Source: a virus
Lineage: Duplodnaviria > Heunggongvirae > Uroviricota > Caudoviricetes
IMG/VR virus record: IMGVR_UViG_2617270941_000009
DNA: 31,825 nucleotides
Direction: 5' to 3' (one strand)
This document shows positions 1,009 through 23,692 of the stretch, piece by piece. The notes below the pieces were generated by a model, which worked only from the letters and a program-made list of their open reading frames with translations, made no database searches and had not been told where the DNA came from. The translations under genes were made by a program, and so were the position numbers. How positions within the stretch are numbered: the stretch's first letter is position 1; every line of letters starts with the position of its first letter.

Positions 1009-1590
1009 TTACCCTATAGGTGCTACTGGCCATTCAATATCCGGTGCAGTTGTTGTATTAACACGGTTCAGCAACACCCGATACTTCTTCCAGGCTTCCA
1101 GCAACGAGGTTTCTTCCTCCGTTGCAATTTCCAGATCTGCAGCATCCTGAAGCGGCGCAATATGCTCACTGGCTACCTGCATCAGGCTGTTTTTTGTTTC
1201 TTCCGCCTCCCGGATCCGGAACAGTTTTTCTGCTTCTGCATCTTTCACCCAGGCTGTGCCGTTCCACTTCTGATATTCCCCTCCCGGCGACAACCAGGTA
1301 ACATTTTCCGGTAACGGACCGAGTTCAGAAATAAATAACGCGTCGCCGGAAGCCACGTCATAAACCGTTTTACCCCGATGGTCTTCAACGAGATGCCACG
1401 ATGCCTCATCACTGTTGAAAACAGCCACAAAGCCAGCAGGAATATCTGGTGGTGCAATATCGGTACTGTTTGCTGGCAGACCTGTATGAGGCGGAATATA
1501 TGCGTCACCTTCACCAATAAATTCATTAGTTCCGGCCAGCAGATTATAAATTTTTATGGTCCGTGGTTGTTCACTCATTCTGAATGCCAT
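1009..1590 (-). CDS. tfa: tail fiber assembly protein Tfa (lambda orf-194 type)
   Basis: 193-aa translation [24 protein letters not shown]... is near-identical to remembered lambda Tfa; start overlaps stf stop (ATGA). Confidence 0.9.
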
Positions 1591-12369: not shown

Positions 12370-12510
12370 ACTTCATACTCCTGCTCCTGTCAGGGTTTTG
12401 GCGTAATTCTTCAGTATTCGGTAATCGGTCAAAACAGAACCGGGGAAACGATATAAGCGCAGATGCCCCCAGCGGTGGCGAAGAAGTTCTGCCATATAAA
12501 ACTCAAACAT
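12370..12510 (-). CDS. ylcG: small protein YlcG-like (46 aa)
   Basis: Untracked 46-codon ORF ([45 protein letters not shown]), start overlapping the rusA stop; size and position match DLP12 ylcG. Sequence identity is not from memory. Confidence 0.45.
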
Positions 12511-12872
12511 CATTCATTCCCCATTTCGGTGATGGTCAGTTCCAGCCTCCCACCTTTGGTAACAGGCATCTTCACAACGCGGTAATCAACGACCTGAGCA
12601 TCATCCAGCCAGAAACCTGCTTTGGTGAGTGCGTCAAAAGAGGCTTTTTGTAGATTATCCAGGTCACGGCGACGGCGATCCGGCATGTGGCACTCAATGC
12701 GGATTTTCACAGGCATAGCCAGACCGATATCCAGCATTGAGCCTTTAATGATTCGGGCGACGTTATCGCGGTATGCCTGCCCTTCTGCGCTGATGTGCGT
12801 GCGCCCTCGATTATGGCGGTAGTAGCGGTTATTGCTCGGCGGCCAGGGTAGTGTGATGTGGTAAGTATTCAC
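12510..12872 (-). CDS. rusA: Holliday junction resolvase RusA
   Basis: 120-aa translation [42 protein letters not shown]... matches RusA family. Confidence 0.9.
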
Positions 12873-13198
12873 GCCTTAATTACCCCCTCTTTCAGCCAGA
12901 TAACCTGCGTTCTCGCCATACCTTCCAGCGCGCATTCTTTTGCATATCCAGCGTCAACAAAATGCGTGCGGCGGTCGATTTCGTCGTGGCAGGCAGAACA
13001 TGCAATGGTGGCAATCAGGTCTGGCGGTTTCGTACCGGTGCCGCACAATCCAGTCAGCCGGATATGTGCCAGTACAGACGTTTCAGGGTTGCCATTACAT
13101 ACGCCAGGGATTCTTACCTGGCATTCCCGACCACGCGCTGCTTTTCTCAAATCAGCCATGATTCCTCCTTGCTGCCAGTCGCAACCATTTTTTATCAA
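12869..13198 (-). CDS. ybcO: DUF1364-type prophage protein YbcO-like (Cys-rich, putative nuclease)
   Basis: 109-aa ORF with multiple Cys (CQVRIPGVC...CGTGTK...CSACHDEID), position between ninE and rusA as in DLP12. Confidence 0.7.
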
Positions 13199-13322
13199 CC
13201 AGGCTAGCGGTATATCCGAGCAGTGTTGGTATTTCGGATGGCTTCAGCTCAGGTTTACGCTTACGACGATTTGGTACTTTGTAGATGTGTCCGTTCATGA
13301 CACGAATAAGCGGTGTAGCCAT
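13152..13322 (-). CDS. ninE: NinE protein
   Basis: Translation from the internal ATG at 13322 ([56 protein letters not shown]) matches NinE; start overlaps the ninB stop. Confidence 0.7.
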   Translation of the reverse strand: MATPLIRVMNGHIYKVPNRRKRKPELKPSEIPTLLGYTASLVDKKWLRLAARRNHG

Positions 13323-13777
13323 TACGCCTCCTGCTTGTCGCGCAGCAGCTGAAACTCGCAGCTCTGTGGAATAGTCAGGTGGCAACCAATATTCATCGCC
13401 CAGGCTTCAACCTTACACAGGAAGACATACATCTCTCCGGTATCAAGATCGGAGGTATGGCGTAACGACTGGATAGTGGTGATATCACCGGTTACGACAT
13501 CAACCAGGTCTTTGGTTTCATAACCGAGATATGTGTGTTTGAGAGCATCTTTTACCCAAGCTGGAGTGGCGAACGTTTTACCCTTGCTGATGAGGTATTC
13601 ACTGATTTCGCTGTACCACATGTGGCTGAGTGCATTCTGGGAAAGACTGCGTCTCTCGCGCCACGGTTTAAGCACCATGCGAAAGCATTTGCCGTCCTCC
13701 AGATAAGGCTGGATCTGCCGACCAATAGCGGTGAAGTTACCGCGATGCAGTTTGATGCCATCTTGTGGGAAGTTCAC
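13322..13777 (-). CDS. ybcN: NinB/Orf-family recombination protein (DLP12 YbcN-like)
   Basis: 151-aa translation [21 protein letters not shown]...; GTG start with GGAGGTG RBS; NinB-family motif [12 protein letters not shown]. Confidence 0.75.
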
Positions 13778-13872
13778 GCTTCACCTCCGCAGAGATCAAA
13801 CGCTGGATGCAAAAAAACGCAGGTGCATTTCTGCATCTGTGGCAAGGCGAGGAGTTCAACTTGTGGTCGCAT
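13774..13872 (-). CDS. small ORF (32 aa) translationally coupled to ninB, YlcH-like; overlaps a conserved duplicated element
   Basis: Untracked [35 protein letters not shown]; TGA overlaps the ninB GTG (GTGA). Coding status uncertain. Confidence 0.35.
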
Positions 13873-13947
13873 ATAATTTCCCAATCATATGCGCAGAAGT
13901 CACCGCAGGGTGTTCAGGCCAACGGTGACGGTATTATTGCTTATTGA

Positions 13948-14199
13948 TTATGATTTTTCAATTTCATCAATAACCTTGTGATAGACAATACCAGAAAGGC
14001 CAACAGACAGTGGATGTTCATGAAATATTGGCTCATTTGCATAAACCCAATGCCCGACAAATTCTTCTGGGCTTGATATGTATAACTCACGAAGAAAATG
14101 GAGATCCCTCTCTACAACTAATTTCGTATCGTCCAAGAGCGCTGCATTTACGCTAGTTTTATGGCTGTGCATTAATTTACATTTGGTGAAGGACATCAT
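13948..14199 (-). CDS. hypothetical protein (83 aa)
   Basis: ORF with strong AAGGAG RBS 8 nt upstream of ATGATG; no family recognised. Confidence 0.45.
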   Translation of the reverse strand: MMSFTKCKLMHSHKTSVNAALLDDTKLVVERDLHFLRELYISSPEEFVGHWVYANEPIFHEHPLSVGLSGIVYHKVIDEIEKS

Positions 14200-14258
14200 G
14201 GCAAAAGCTCCTTTTTCTTATGAATCCATATGTTAGCTAAATTGGAGAGACACAGTAG

Positions 14259-14873
14259 CTAACGTTGTTTAATAACATTCTGACGCAAATGTGGCAATAC
14301 TCGACTCCACTTATCATCCTGCCACGGCTGGAATTTTACATGTGCCGTTTCTCTGGCGAGGATTGCTCGCGCTCTGGTGAGTATCTGGGGATATTCTTGC
14401 TCGATGGAAGTGAAGCGACCAGCTTCACGATGCTCCGCAACCTGAAGAAGAGGAGTAACGTTCTGGCAGGCGGTTAACATCGCATCCCCAGCTCGCCATA
14501 ACCAAGCAAGTGTGCAAAGTTCGTTATCAGTGAATTGTTTTGTGATCGGGGATTGTTGAACTTCTCGATCGAGAATATCCAGAACCCAGCGGCGGAACTC
14601 TTTGGCTACAGGAGTTCGTGCAAACATGGCGATCAAATGGGCTCCGCGAAGGCTAAATACTCGAGACTCCTGCATTCCACGAGGGGTGGTCACTTTGACC
14701 ACCCTTGTCATCATATCTGTAAATTCATCTGAGTGACGAGAGTAAATGCGCTGAACTGCTTTATCGTCCGCATATTCCAGAGCTAAACCAACTTCAGTGG
14801 CAGTAAGCCAAATTCTGTTATTGTGGCAAATTGGGGTAAACGTCGTTTTGTGGAATGCTAATTGAGTAGTCAT
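14259..14873 (-). CDS. BRO-N domain protein (phage antirepressor-like)
   Basis: 204-aa ORF with GAGGTG RBS; N-terminal region (FTPICHNNRIWLTATEVGLALEY...RWVLDILD) resembles the Bro-N/antirepressor domain. Family call from memory. Confidence 0.55.
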   Translation of the reverse strand: MTTQLAFHKTTFTPICHNNRIWLTATEVGLALEYADDKAVQRIYSRHSDEFTDMMTRVVKVTTPRGMQESRVFSLRGAHLIAMFARTPVAKEFRRWVLDILDREVQQSPITKQFTDNELCTLAWLWRAGDAMLTACQNVTPLLQVAEHREAGRFTSIEQEYPQILTRARAILARETAHVKFQPWQDDKWSRVLPHLRQNVIKQR

Positions 14874-15195
14874 AGTTTCACCTCATCAGGTTAACCATCA
14901 CCACCAACGACGCCAATCGACTGGTGGTGAACTGTGCAAGGTTGGCGTAACCGGCTACTCAAATCCGGCGCTCCCGAAGAAGCCCTCACACAGCCCACCA
15001 TAATTTGGGCGTAGCCGTGCTTAGCGCATAAAAAAACCGCTTAACGCGGTATGCGTTGAGTAGTATTCCGGGACGCCAATCCCGTGTGCCGATTTTGCGG
15101 CAACGCACAGAATATATCCCCAGATAAATCATGTCGTCAACCCCAGTAAATGGACACCATGATGATCACAGCCATAGCTGCTACAACAGTTACAA

Positions 15196-15357
15196 CTACC
15201 TCAGGCCAAAACATAACGATTTCCATATCACCTTTAGCCGCCAGACGAATAGAGACTCCCAATTCTGGCTGTCGAAGTAAAACACCGAATGTAAAAAATC
15301 GTAGGTGCATTTCTGCATCTGTGAATGGAGAAGATAGGTTGGATTGTATGTGCGCAT
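15196..15357 (-). CDS. second YlcH-like small ORF (53 aa), paralogous to 13774..13872; alternative to track ORF 15137..15385
   Basis: ORF MRTYNPTYLLHSQMQKCTYDFLHSVF... shares the QMQKCT core and conserved 5' leader with the ylcH-like ORF upstream of ninB. Coding status uncertain. Confidence 0.3.
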   Translation of the reverse strand: MRTYNPTYLLHSQMQKCTYDFLHSVFYFDSQNWESLFVWRLKVIWKSLCFGLR

Positions 15358-15484
15358 AAACGTCCCCGTTTAGCGCAGAAGTCACCGGAGTTGTTCAGGC
15401 TCCGGCTTATTAATATTGCCTACTTACAATTAATTTTTCAACTGTTAGAAACTTATAATTAGCTGTCTCTTTGTAACTATCAAT

Positions 15485-17380
15485 TTAATTATTTTTCTTT
15501 AACTTGAAATTTCTTCCCATTGCTAGTGTTCTTCGAAGATTCGAATCATAAGCTGGTTGATAACATCTATCATAAAAATCCTTAATTGTCTGATGGTAAG
15601 TATCCAGCATCAAACCATAAAACCCCCTGACCTTAAGATAATCCACCAAGGGAAATAAATAATCATCAGTCTGAACATCAGTATCAATATTATTTTTTTG
15701 TTTTTTAACTTCAAATTTGTATAAGTTTAACTCACCCTTATCCATCGTGCATGAAAAAAGGTCGTCAAAAATCAAATCAATTTTTGTCATAGGAACTCGT
15801 TCTTTTCCAGACATTATAGGTAGAATATCAATACCTAAGAGCGAACCTAATACAAAGTCGTAATGAAGCGAAATCACTGAGTCATTCGATGTCGAGTTGC
15901 CTTTGATAAATACTCTACTTAGTGCCGAGTCAAAAACATTCTCAACTCTCTCTCTCGTCATGTTTGCGACATCTACAACCCCCATATCACGAGAAGCTTT
16001 TATTGTGATTTCATCTATAAATGCTTTGGAATCTAGTGAATGTAAAAACAACATGAAGTTATCTAACTGTTCAGAGCATTTAATAGCCACCATAAGATTT
16101 TCGTATATATCTTTTTTATACTCAATCGGTAAATTTGCTACCGCAAAAGCAGCATAAAATTCTTGCACTGATTTATGCAGAAAAACATACCTATTATTTC
16201 CCTCAGGTTGGATAAGGCAAGTTATCTCAATAAGATCATCTATAAAGTTTGATGCATCTTCTTTAAGATAACCTTCTGTTTCAATAGCATCTTCAGCATA
16301 TCTAAGCAACTCTTCTCCCCAAAACTCAAATTTCTCCTCAATCAGTGCGTTATAGCAAATAGCTGAAAAACACAATTTAGCTTTTTCACCAATAATGTTT
16401 GATTTTTTCTCGCGCGTATATACTTTTATTTTATCATGCCTTGCATATAAGGTGTCAAAGAGGCTTCGATAAAACTCTATTATATTATTTGGAATATCAT
16501 TCATATAAGGATAACAATAATACAAAAGAGTAACTAAAATTGGATTGCAAATAGTTCCCTCAAGTTCTTCTTTATCACATAGTAAATCCGCCAAGACTTT
16601 AAACGAGGCATCACTACTTGAGAATCTGTCATTTTTCGATAAAGAATGAAGAATACAAATCTTATCAGAAATATTTAGCTTATCTATAAAAATATTATAC
16701 ACATCAGTAGTATAACATATATCTGTATTTGGTCTCGTTGTTGCGATAATTGGTGTGTTAAAATGATAATGAATGTTTTTTATTTCATTCATCATCATAG
16801 TTCGCTCTTCATGTTTAACCTCATCAAATCCATCCAACATTAAAACGACTCTTTGGGATTGCAGTAATATTTTCAAGCTATCCTCTGAACACCCCACACC
16901 AAATGAATTAAGAATGTCTGCCAGATAAGCAATAATATTTGCATTCTTCACCCTTCTTAATTCAATAAAAAAAGGCATCCGTTCTGATTTTTTTATTTCC
17001 TCGCTAAACAACTTGCGTAAAATAGTACTTTTCCCTTGCCCCGCTATACCGACTATATTTACAATACCATGAAATGGTAAAGTGACCCCATCTTTTATAA
17101 CGACCTTGTCTTTATTAGATGCCACCTCAACAGTTAACGGATAATAAATATCATCTAAAAAAATATCATAATCAGCGTTGTGCAAAGTTCTCATTTTCAG
17201 AGATGGTAGCACATGCTTTCTTAAATAATTTTCTCTTCCGAGGGGATCATTTAATTGTTCGAGTATAACCTTGCCTTCATCTAGGTCCCTAGCCCAAGGT
17301 TTAGAGAGCAATACTTCTGTTATTTTTTCCGCAGCTTTTCCTACTGTGCTATTAATAATAGTCGCAAGAAACTCATCCAT
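15485..17380 (-). CDS. NACHT/STAND-type P-loop NTPase, candidate single-gene anti-phage defence protein
   Basis: Walker A GIAGQGKST; Walker B VVLMLDGFDEV (NACHT-type DGxDE); sensor-1-like IIATTRP; NPILVTLL motif. The track start at 17437 is a TTG; the ATG at 17380 (MDEFLATIINS..., RBS GGTGAAAAA) is preferred, with the ATG at 17416 as an alternative. Markedly AT-rich by eye. Confidence 0.75.
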   Translation of the reverse strand: MDEFLATIINSTVGKAAEKITEVLLSKPWARDLDEGKVILEQLNDPLGRENYLRKHVLPSLKMRTLHNADYDIFLDDIYYPLTVEVASNKDKVVIKDGVTLPFHGIVNIVGIAGQGKSTILRKLFSEEIKKSERMPFFIELRRVKNANIIAYLADILNSFGVGCSEDSLKILLQSQRVVLMLDGFDEVKHEERTMMMNEIKNIHYHFNTPIIATTRPNTDICYTTDVYNIFIDKLNISDKICILHSLSKNDRFSSSDASFKVLADLLCDKEELEGTICNPILVTLLYYCYPYMNDIPNNIIEFYRSLFDTLYARHDKIKVYTREKKSNIIGEKAKLCFSAICYNALIEEKFEFWGEELLRYAEDAIETEGYLKEDASNFIDDLIEITCLIQPEGNNRYVFLHKSVQEFYAAFAVANLPIEYKKDIYENLMVAIKCSEQLDNFMLFLHSLDSKAFIDEITIKASRDMGVVDVANMTRERVENVFDSALSRVFIKGNSTSNDSVISLHYDFVLGSLLGIDILPIMSGKERVPMTKIDLIFDDLFSCTMDKGELNLYKFEVKKQKNNIDTDVQTDDYLFPLVDYLKVRGFYGLMLDTYHQTIKDFYDRCYQPAYDSNLRRTLAMGRNFKLKKNN

Positions 17381-17768
17381 TTTTTCACCACATTCATTAA
17401 CCAATACGTGGTGCATTCTTACAAGACTCAGTAACAATTGTCAATCATAGGTTTTCGCATGATTGCAAAACGCCATAAACAATTGTAGCACCATAATTTT
17501 AAACACTATATAATATACAACCTTCCTACAAGCATTCAGTACATCGCTTAATCACAGGGCTTGAATATATAGTAAGGAATCGATATTAATCACCTCATCT
17601 ACTTTAAACATCTTACACACCTATAATTTATAATAGTCAACACGAGGTCATCATATTAAACATGCAATTACAAACATTCATTTTTATATAAATTTTCATG
17701 ATTTAACCGTAGAGCGACGGTAATAAATTTCATATACAAGGATTTAAGCTCCCATACGTTTTCTATTA

Positions 17769-23455: not shown

Positions 23456-23527
23456 GTGCGGTTTTACCGCATACCAATAACGCTTCACTCGAGGCGTTTT
23501 TCGTTATGTATAAATAAGGAGCACACC

Positions 23528-23692
23528 ATGCAATATGCCATTGCAGGGTGGCCTGTTGCTGGCTGCCCTTCCGAATCTTTACTTGAACGAATCACCCGTA
23601 AATTACGTGACGGATGGAAACGCCTTATCGACATACTTAATCAGCCAGGAGTCCCAAAGAATGGATCAAACACTTATGGCTATCCAGACTAA
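23528..23692 (+). CDS. cIII: CIII protein (FtsH/HflB inhibitor stabilising CII)
   Basis: 54-aa translation [54 protein letters not shown] matches lambda CIII. Confidence 0.9.
   Translation: MQYAIAGWPVAGCPSESLLERITRKLRDGWKRLIDILNQPGVPKNGSNTYGYPD

Follow-up and report, generated by a model that had tools for sequence, protein, structure and literature searches.

What are the two similar segments that lie on the minus strand on either side of a Bro-N antirepressor module in the viral record IMGVR_UViG_2617270941_000009, one of which runs into the start of ninB? The window analysed here is the whole 31,825-nucleotide stretch of this record; positions are counted from its first letter, and features are on the minus strand unless stated otherwise. 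This stretch is a lambdoid prophage of Escherichia coli that resembles DLP12 and phage 82, and the region in question is 99.9% identical to several complete genomes. To the following explanation, taken as a whole, we give a probability of roughly 60%. The two segments would be two alleles of one cassette of ~190 bp. The cassette would encode a four-hairpin leader with a tiny open reading frame (ORF; ylcH in DLP12, orf33 in phage 82) that gates translation of the ninB-to-rusA gene chain. Copy A (13775–13961), which adjoins ninB, would be the canonical, working ninB leader.

The repeated cassette and its distribution

A first-pass annotation of this DNA had described two minus-strand segments sharing two near-identical blocks, and both segments are real and lie where it had placed them, with a 21-mer and a 14-mer exact in both. 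The 21-mer CACAGATGCAGAAATGCACCT has two exact occurrences in the window (13821–13841 and 15303–15323), and it found 0 matches in 100 dinucleotide shuffles with up to three mismatches allowed, the chance expectation being 0. The second block, GGTGACTTCTGCGC, is also identical in copy A and copy B. Precisely two copies were detected in the window by a profile hidden Markov model and, likewise, by a covariance model, which scored 129.1 bits for copy A (13757–13929) and 64.9 bits for copy B (15257–15409).

The extent first given for the segments (13790–13930 and 15290–15410) was too small. The similarity covers ~13775–13961 in copy A and ~15289–15441 in copy B; upstream it reaches the promoter-like region of each (to 13961 and 15441), and downstream it breaks off sooner in copy B (~15289) than in copy A (~13775). 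The stretch between the two blocks is diverged, as had been noted, but the divergence is not random, since this stretch is made up of hairpin arms in which changes compensate each other. Judged by its 5′ halves, the pair is not a recent tandem duplication, because the 5′ half of copy B is of the phage 82 type and that of copy A is of a rarer type.

The similarity is not limited to short blocks without conservation in related phages, a possibility that the first-pass annotation had left standing; the element is a widespread family. The leader cassette is carried by 3040 of 5426 complete E. coli genomes and occurs in 48 phage records, including those of phages 82, phi80, HK639, and HK225. It is also found in Enterobacter, Citrobacter, Trabulsiella, and related genera, and a more divergent form is present in Klebsiella phages and prophages. 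In E. coli K-12, the cassette corresponds to the ylcH region between ybcM and ybcN. It stands directly upstream of ninB in all 80 loci that were retrieved through the NinB protein alone, and the gene downstream of it nearly always belongs to the NinB/Orf family, with representatives of very different subfamilies. No match to the leader model was found upstream of ninB in lambda, where ninB follows ren after a 73-nt gap. Two Rfam matches elsewhere in the window, to IS009 (227 bits; 1049–1247, minus strand) and to the lambda cIII thermoregulator (88.5 bits; 23515–23573, plus strand), confirm the lambdoid context and orientation.

Four hairpins and a promoter-like site

The leader messenger RNA is ~170 nt long and contains four hairpins (HP1 to HP4), each with compensatory changes, which strongly supports the suggestion made at first pass that the segments hold a conserved cis-regulatory RNA structure. 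In an alignment of 106 distinct sequences fitted to this structure, 93.9% of the cells pair, compared with 28–37% when slid. Thirty-two of the 38 pairs are changed on both sides in this alignment (HP1, 10/11; HP2, 10/10; HP3, 3/7; HP4, 9/10). Unfitted tests of HP1, HP2, and HP4 agree with it, as do out-of-sample Klebsiella sequences.

HP1 combines a freely varying stem of 9–11 bp with a conserved loop, (C/U)CUG(A/G)(A/G)CA(A/C), of which CCUGAACAA is an example. In the minimum free energy fold of copy A, it takes the form GUCACCGUUGG / loop CCUGAACAC / CCCUGCGGUGAC (13899–13929). An unfitted MAFFT alignment gave both-side changes in seven of nine stem pairs, with 93.8% of cells pairing against 26–43% when slid. 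U.G wobbles are frequent on the sense strand, one pair being U.G in 78 sequences and C-G in 55, and for this reason the structure is taken to form in the sense-strand RNA and not in DNA. By fold and alignment, HP1 of copy B (15384–15406) is reduced to 7 bp through loss of the outer GUC/GAC pairs and keeps the loop CCUGAACAA.

HP2 follows a UUCU linker and has 10–12 bp throughout the family. Its loop, GGGA, is the Shine-Dalgarno sequence of the leader ORF, and the start codon of that ORF, AUG or GUG, is in its 3′ arm. In copy A, it has 11 bp (13868–13893; −12.9 kcal/mol, z = −3.9), with the loop at 13879–13882 and the AUG at 13870–13872. Copy B has the phage-82 type, GCGCUAAACG-GGGA-CGUUUAUGCGC (15352–15376; −14.4 kcal/mol), with its AUG at 15355–15357. 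Seven sequence-distinct variants in the E. coli clade and an eighth in Klebsiella phages have the same layout, with free energies of −13 to −17 kcal/mol. HP2 is followed by a C/A-rich, G-poor spacer of ~29 nt, which in copy A (13840–13867) covers the variable codons at the N-terminal end of the leader ORF. Between versions, the spacer differs wholly in sequence and is constant in composition: its 64 variants average 35% C, 35% A, 23% U, and 7% G, against local values of 21% C and 23% G.

HP3 coincides with the near-identical core that encodes the peptide motif "QMQKCT". RNAalifold gave CAGAUGCA-GAAA-UGCACCUG with an A.C mismatch for copy A (13820–13839), and by alignment copy B (15302–15321) differs from it only in the outermost pair (G to A at 15302). 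The Klebsiella clade has three compensated pairs in HP3, CCGAUGGC-GAAA-GCCACCGG, and keeps both the A.C mismatch and the GAAA loop. In variants with a different loop, the closing A-U pair becomes U.G. These variants form a subclade (L177, L154, L173, L162, L176, L163, and L165) in which A-GAAA-U is replaced by U-UAAC-G, U-UAGC-G, or U-UAUC-G; the encoded peptide changes from QKC to LNG, LSG, or LIG, and the rest of the leader is unchanged. A longer HP3, pairing AUGCAGAAAU with AUUUUCUGCAU, appeared in single-sequence folds and was rejected as unsupported by the loop-replacing variants and by the variable 3′ side. A long-range UUCUGC/GCAGAA pairing was likewise discarded, as seven members swap AGAAAU for UUAACG-type loops with no change upstream.

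HP4 comes after a U-rich linker. Its 5′ arm is made of the last codons of the leader ORF, which pair with the Shine-Dalgarno sequence and start of ninB, so that in copy A (13776–13803) the ninB Shine-Dalgarno sequence (GGAGG, 13784–13788) and start codon are both buried. Over 74 variants, HP4 has a mean free energy of −15.8 kcal/mol (z = −4.0) with the Shine-Dalgarno sequence 85% paired, and several compensated versions exist. This sequestration of a downstream start by the 3′ part of the leader ORF is absent from copy B, which has no HP4. Rfam 15 gave no match over either copy, at gathering thresholds or at E-values up to 5. A search of both window strands for a trans partner, in the form of complementary stretches of at least 10 nt, returned chance 10-mers only and none in isrK or C4.

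The cassette is headed by a putative sigma-70-like promoter motif with the family consensus TTGATT-17-CATAAT, and conservation begins sharply at its −35 element. Of 141 unique family members, 140 have the looser pattern TTGnnn-N16-18-nAnnnT at a constant spacing from HP1. In copy A, a consensus scan identified TTGAAA-17-AATAAT (13933–13961; 10 of 12 matches). The region upstream of copy B holds a weaker promoter-like site, TTGAAA-18-AATATT (15412–15441; 9 of 12 matches), and does not have the canonical family −35/−10: NACHT cargo joins at ~15403–15405, and the homology of the copy B region to other genomes begins at query positions 96–98, which are window positions 15403–15405; the outer pairs of HP1 were replaced at this junction as well. 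Other leader copies linked to isrK retain the canonical promoter.

An inverted repeat, TTGAT-N8-ATCAA, overlaps the family −35 element (window 13941–13961) and could be a candidate operator. The inverted repeat of the FNR consensus has a spacing of N4, which speaks against an FNR-like site here. A direct repeat, two occurrences of CCATAATCA, is also present upstream of HP1. Two Klebsiella phages (L184:260-490 and L185:250-485) keep all four hairpins and a −10-like GATAAT, and the GC-rich hairpin at their −35 position has compensating variants of its own, CCCCGGGAAGGG and CCCCGUAACGGG. The linker between HP1 and HP2 is ~12 nt long in the Klebsiella clade and 4 nt in the E. coli clade.

The leader ORF, a possible gate, and the alternatives

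Small ORFs had been reported over both copies, one of them coupled to the start of ninB, and both are present. The ORF of copy A (13774–13872) has 32 codons and is annotated by the Prokaryotic Genome Annotation Pipeline (PGAP) as a 32-amino-acid hypothetical protein; its TGA stop overlaps the GTG of ninB at 13777 as GTGA. That of copy B (15357–15196) has 53 codons. In nearly all of 179 instances, the leader ORF is open at 31–33 codons and ends in a 4-nt stop/start overlap (ATGA or GTGA). Copy A thus conforms to the ylcH/orf33 type, a frame of 31–33 codons upstream of and overlapping ninB/ybcN, and copy B, with 53 codons and no ninB, does not.

The gene that receives this overlap, ninB/ybcN (13322–13777; NCBIfam PRK09741, 276 bits), encodes an Orf-family recombination mediator and is the first of an overlapping chain, ninB, ninE, ybcO, rusA, and ylcG (12373–13777), in which successive stop/start overlaps measure 1, 8, 4, and 4 nt. 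In the gate that we propose, HP2, which sequesters the Shine-Dalgarno sequence and start of the leader ORF, would keep initiation on that ORF low. A ribosome that did translate the leader ORF would melt HP4, stop at the overlapping stop codon, and re-initiate on ninB. Because the genes from ninB to ylcG overlap stop to start, translation of the whole chain may be coupled to that of the leader ORF, and the leader could set the ribosome flux for all five genes. When left untranslated, the C-rich, G-poor spacer might additionally let Rho act on unmodified transcription, in which case the element would be a functional counterpart of the lambda terminators at this position. According to Mahdi 1996, as cited in PMC4118853, rusA in DLP12 needs a promoter borne by an insertion sequence for its expression, and a leader gate fits this silence.

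Several points weigh against the gate. The 106-sequence alignment was fitted to the structure and so leans towards it, and both the promoter activity and the gating itself are inferred. Not every form of the cassette has the promoter, since the Klebsiella clade has a small GC hairpin in place of the −35. The rusA result is one of low expression and does not locate the block. No factor was found here that would open HP2, a hairpin of −13 to −17 kcal/mol. Finally, the gate leaves the conservation of the HP1 loop and of the HP3 GAAA loop and A.C mismatch unexplained, and a bound factor may be missing from it.

A different reading starts from the peptide. The segments had been described as possible paralogous micro-proteins, and part of this stands: the ORF is real and is a homologue of DLP12 ylcH and phage 82 orf33. 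Copy A shares with the translated K-12 YlcH its MR start, core, and C-terminus, and copy B shares MRTYNP..LL.SQMQKCT..FLH before diverging. That these ORFs encode functional paralogues, with nucleotide conservation merely following selection on the peptide, would account for a frame that is intact in ~95% of instances around the conserved core SQMQKCTCDFLH, for the annotated genes in K-12 (ylcH) and phage 82 (orf33), and for the ylcH RNA detected in K-12, which is ~2-fold higher in microaerobic growth (PMC8910356). The pattern of change makes it quite improbable, however. Outside the core, the peptide is approximately neutral, with a pN/pS of 0.9–1.0 in the N-terminal part, and its first third has at least six versions that are unrelated to one another. 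In the core, most of the observed changes are non-synonymous (one residue is N, S, or I in a subclade), synonymous sites are as invariant as the others, and Klebsiella phages have the core peptide PMAKATG for QMQKCTC through base changes that preserve the HP3 pairs. Conservation of blocks by which many family members were retrieved, using exact-match patterns, is inflated. A ninB-anchored sample, which controls for this retrieval bias only among close relatives of one ninB type, gave a diversity of 0.004 for the 20-nt core and 0.22 for the preceding 36 nt on the spacer side, and of 0.008, 0.009, and 0.057 at codon positions 1, 2, and 3 of ninB, a normal coding signature. The peptides have no Pfam or NCBIfam family match. 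ORFs of the copy B type range from 14 to 53 amino acids, and that of copy B itself has neither the normal end nor any coupling to a downstream gene. As read from these patterns, selection is on RNA structure, spacer composition, and an open frame with translation through to the ninB start, and not on a micro-protein, because the N-terminus is neutral, the core variants are non-synonymous, the Klebsiella core is swapped, and core diversity is low. The small peptide is probably not the functional product.

The remaining alternatives concern the nucleic acid itself. It is doubtful that the element is mainly a terminator or attenuator, a counterpart of lambda tR2 working either intrinsically through HP3 and a T-run or through Rho on the C-rich spacer. 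Its map position is that of the ren–ninB gap of lambda, which has no cassette and in which tR2 lies. The copy A sequence is terminator-like, with an 8-pair stem and then a T-rich tail; the base composition of the 64 spacer variants is rut-like, and HP2, by blocking translation of the leader ORF, would favour Rho polarity. The T-run after the core, however, which the first-pass annotation had singled out, is not conserved across the family, most members reading GATTTTCTGCAT. An intrinsic terminator was rejected because a T7 run is found only in copy A and a minority of members against a consensus of GAUUUUCUGCAU. The HP3 stem is short and mismatched and mostly has no U-tract after it, the C-rich stretch is only ~29 nt long and lies between stable hairpins, and termination leaves HP4 and the stop/start overlap unexplained. 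Action through Rho is moreover compatible with the proposed gate and not an alternative to it. We consider it unlikely that the leader is a factor-responsive riboregulator and a switch for the nin/Q chain, with the HP1 loop, whose conservation extends from E. coli to Klebsiella phages, and the HP3 GAAA/A.C as docking sites; a docked phage or host RNA-binding protein, or RNA polymerase in the manner of put, would then open HP2 or make transcription termination-resistant. Were this so, the same switch would, through copy B, also control the antirepressor module or a toxin-like peptide. As for HP1 being a DNA operator that controls the adjacent promoter, its palindrome does lie at or around +1 of the promoter-like site, with a second inverted repeat over the −35. 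Its arms vary and its centre is conserved, the reverse of a dimeric operator, and the sense-strand U.G wobbles would be A.C mismatches on the opposite strand or in duplex DNA, so that this reading is very improbable; the −35 repeat, unlike HP1, could still be an operator. Equally slight is the probability that the similarity is a mere recombination linker or scar, functionless and kept as a site of flanking-module exchange. In its favour, the edges of the cassette coincide with mosaic junctions, its 5′ and 3′ halves occur in different combinations on either side of the core, and the core stands out as a stretch of identity flanked by hypervariable sequence. The cargo enclosed by tandem copies is varied, ranging from the antirepressor module and HEPN-like genes to a toxin of the pyocin/colicin-E3 type accompanied by its immunity gene. 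The maintenance of 32 of 38 pairs through both-side changes nevertheless requires selection on RNA structure, and the reading frame, the stop/start overlap, and the Shine-Dalgarno placement are all maintained, none of which homology alone predicts.

Among known systems, the proposed gate would place the leader in the class of translationally coupled leader ORFs with sequestered ribosome-binding sites. In mok-hok (hok/sok) and the erm/cat leader peptides, it is the translation of a short upstream ORF, and not its product, that unmasks a downstream ribosome-binding site. The leader resembles these in its stop/start overlap and in the stable hairpins that cover a Shine-Dalgarno sequence and AUG. 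It differs in that no antisense RNA, inducer, or stalling signal was identified here, and in that the ribosome-binding site of the leader ORF is itself locked by HP2. With lambda tR2, it shares the map position at the entrance to the nin region and would form an analogous gate between the replication and nin/Q genes, but lambda has no match to the leader model and the family has no conserved GC-rich hairpin with a U-tract.

The put antiterminator RNAs of HK022 and HK639 have two stem-loops in ~65–70 nt that begin at, or adjacent to, the transcription start of a sigma-70 promoter (PMC9378689). HP1, the UUCU linker, and HP2 similarly occupy ~65 nt beside a promoter-like site. Unlike put, however, HP2 contains a Shine-Dalgarno sequence and start codon, and the leader lies within the nin region rather than directly downstream of PL or PR. 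No resemblance to a known put RNA was found: the putL-like RNA of HK639 folds differently and has no loop or stem sequence in common with the leader of the same phage. Nor is the cassette confined to HK639, being found also in genomes of the phage 82, phi80, and DLP12 types. A nut site was rejected because no boxA-like sequence is conserved before HP1 or HP3 across variants and the location is wrong, and a boxB reading of HP1 because the proposed U-A closing pair of the pentaloop is not conserved.

The locus and the ORF are those of DLP12 ylcH and phage 82 orf33 (GenBank X92588; Mahdi et al., 1996). The phage 82 record annotates the ORF as orf33 and labels the HP1 palindrome a 'possible regulator-binding site', and the phi80 record annotates HP2 as the inverted repeat 'IR4'. 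These records give the ORF, putative −35/−10 signals, and single inverted repeats only; they say nothing of a four-hairpin leader or its covariation, of how both ribosome-binding sites are sequestered, or of a fused second copy. No account of a four-hairpin leader was found in the searchable literature. What is already known is therefore the ORF, the single palindromes, and the kind of cargo module discussed below, and the four-hairpin motif is uncatalogued in Rfam.

The cassette is present in more than half of the complete E. coli genomes, at the entrance to a gene chain that ends before the late-gene activator Q. If the covariation-supported gate is correct, it would offer a reason for the silence of rusA and its neighbours in DLP12-type prophages. 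The annotated ylcH would be reclassified as a cis-acting leader ORF and no longer as a micro-protein, and an uncatalogued structured RNA motif would be added to the phage regulatory elements.

Copy B and the cargo slot

From its 5′ end, the minus strand of the region carries P, a truncated ren, a NACHT NTPase (17437–15485), and copy B, followed by a 29-amino-acid hydrophobic ORF, isrK, the C4 antisense RNA, the Bro-N/P22AR-C antirepressor, an 83-amino-acid ORF, and copy A; ninB/ybcN, ninE, ybcO, rusA, ylcG, and quuD come next. Copy B keeps HP1 to HP3 and is then fused to the hydrophobic micro-ORF and the isrK/C4/Bro-N antirepressor module. Its homology to DLP12-type leaders ends at query position 122, window position 15289, near codon 24, and its ylcH-like ORF of 53 codons (15196–15357) runs past this end, with no HP4 to follow and no coupling to ninB. 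Among isrK-linked copies generally, the ORF has 53, 46, 40, or 14 codons, and one copy has a stop codon within the core. That copy is the first leader of contig L024, where the base change responsible leaves HP3 able to form a U.G pair.

The first-pass annotation had also suggested that the segments might be the recombination scar through which this cargo was acquired. Mosaic breakpoints do lie at the cassette edges, and in phage 82 the 5′ half of the leader resembles that of copy B and the 3′ half that of copy A. A one-off scar is refuted for copy B, however, since the leader–isrK fusion is standard, being present in 299 of 308 E. coli genomes with this isrK-C4 type. The same order (leader, module, variable cargo, leader, and ninB) recurs in independent viral contigs. 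We suggest that the cassette serves both as a regulatory leader and as homology for module exchange, bounding a cargo slot, and that the tandem arrangement may have arisen by modular recombination using the cassette as portable homology. Lambdoid phages have conserved boundary ('linker') sequences between modules, and the cassette resembles these in that it is a short stretch of conserved sequence, with hypervariable segments on both sides, where exchange of alleles and cargo takes place; it differs in that this stretch is under its own structural constraint as an RNA hairpin. Recognition of a recurrent slot bounded by leader copies and holding antirepressor modules, NACHT and HEPN genes, or a bacteriocin helps in reading prophage mosaics.

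An ORF of 82 codons in an alternative frame over copy B (15137–15385) had been pointed out as well. It is not conserved as a long ORF, and a protein search with it returned only sporadic 'hypothetical' calls of variable length, but its last 29 codons recur (15226–15137). These form the hydrophobic micro-ORF MEIVMFWPEVVVTVVAAMAVIIMVSIYWG (15137–15226), which has its own Shine-Dalgarno sequence, lies between copy B and the isrK promoter, and has its start overlapped by the 53-codon ORF. Its variants in contigs L024 and L105 remain hydrophobic. No family match was found for it, and no antisense or complementary partner in the window. From sequence alone, a 29-amino-acid hydrophobic ORF overlapped by a leader-like ORF has a mok/hok-like geometry, as in type I toxins.

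Downstream of a strong promoter-like site (TTGACG-18-TATATT; 15140–15111), isrK with its a1b1 region (15030–15117) matches the Rfam isrK family at 60.7 bits (threshold 50) and c4-a1b1 at 37.8 bits, below its threshold of 46.7. It is followed by the C4 antisense RNA (14920–15005; Rfam, 72.4 bits, threshold 45), the antirepressor (14259–14873; Pfam Bro-N and P22_AR_C), and the 83-amino-acid ORF (13948–14199). Because isrK overlaps the c4-a1b1 match and is followed by C4 and an antirepressor, IsrK here appears to correspond to the a1b1 target region of a P1 immI-type module. The cargo between the two copies resembles P1 immI (c4, a1b1, ant) and the isrK-orf45-anrP region of Gifsy-1 in its matches to isrK, C4, and, at a sub-threshold score, c4-a1b1, and in the Bro-N antirepressor that comes after them. 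In Gifsy-1, the isrK-anrP module lies downstream of antQ (PMC4825925), whereas the module here is found before ninB, with a leader copy and the hydrophobic micro-ORF ahead of it.

The NACHT NTPase between the truncated ren and copy B is an AT-rich ORF of 650 codons (15485–17437, minus strand). PADLOC gave no match for this ORF or the cargo. In the near-identical genome NZ_CP027310, it is annotated by PGAP as two coding sequences, with the P-loop split from the rest. Two viral contigs (L024:2275-4761 and L092:261-2759) carry an isrK-antirepressor module followed by ORFs of 138 and 133 amino acids and then a second leader. E. coli genomes with a related arrangement have, under the match, a coding sequence annotated as HEPN domain-containing, which may be the same ORF. 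In another contig (L081:6845-11124), the cargo between two leaders consists of a tail-fibre-like protein, an S-type pyocin whose cytotoxic domain is of the colicin-E3 type, and an immunity protein of the cloacin type, and the first leader copy is followed by a ninB stub of 32 codons.

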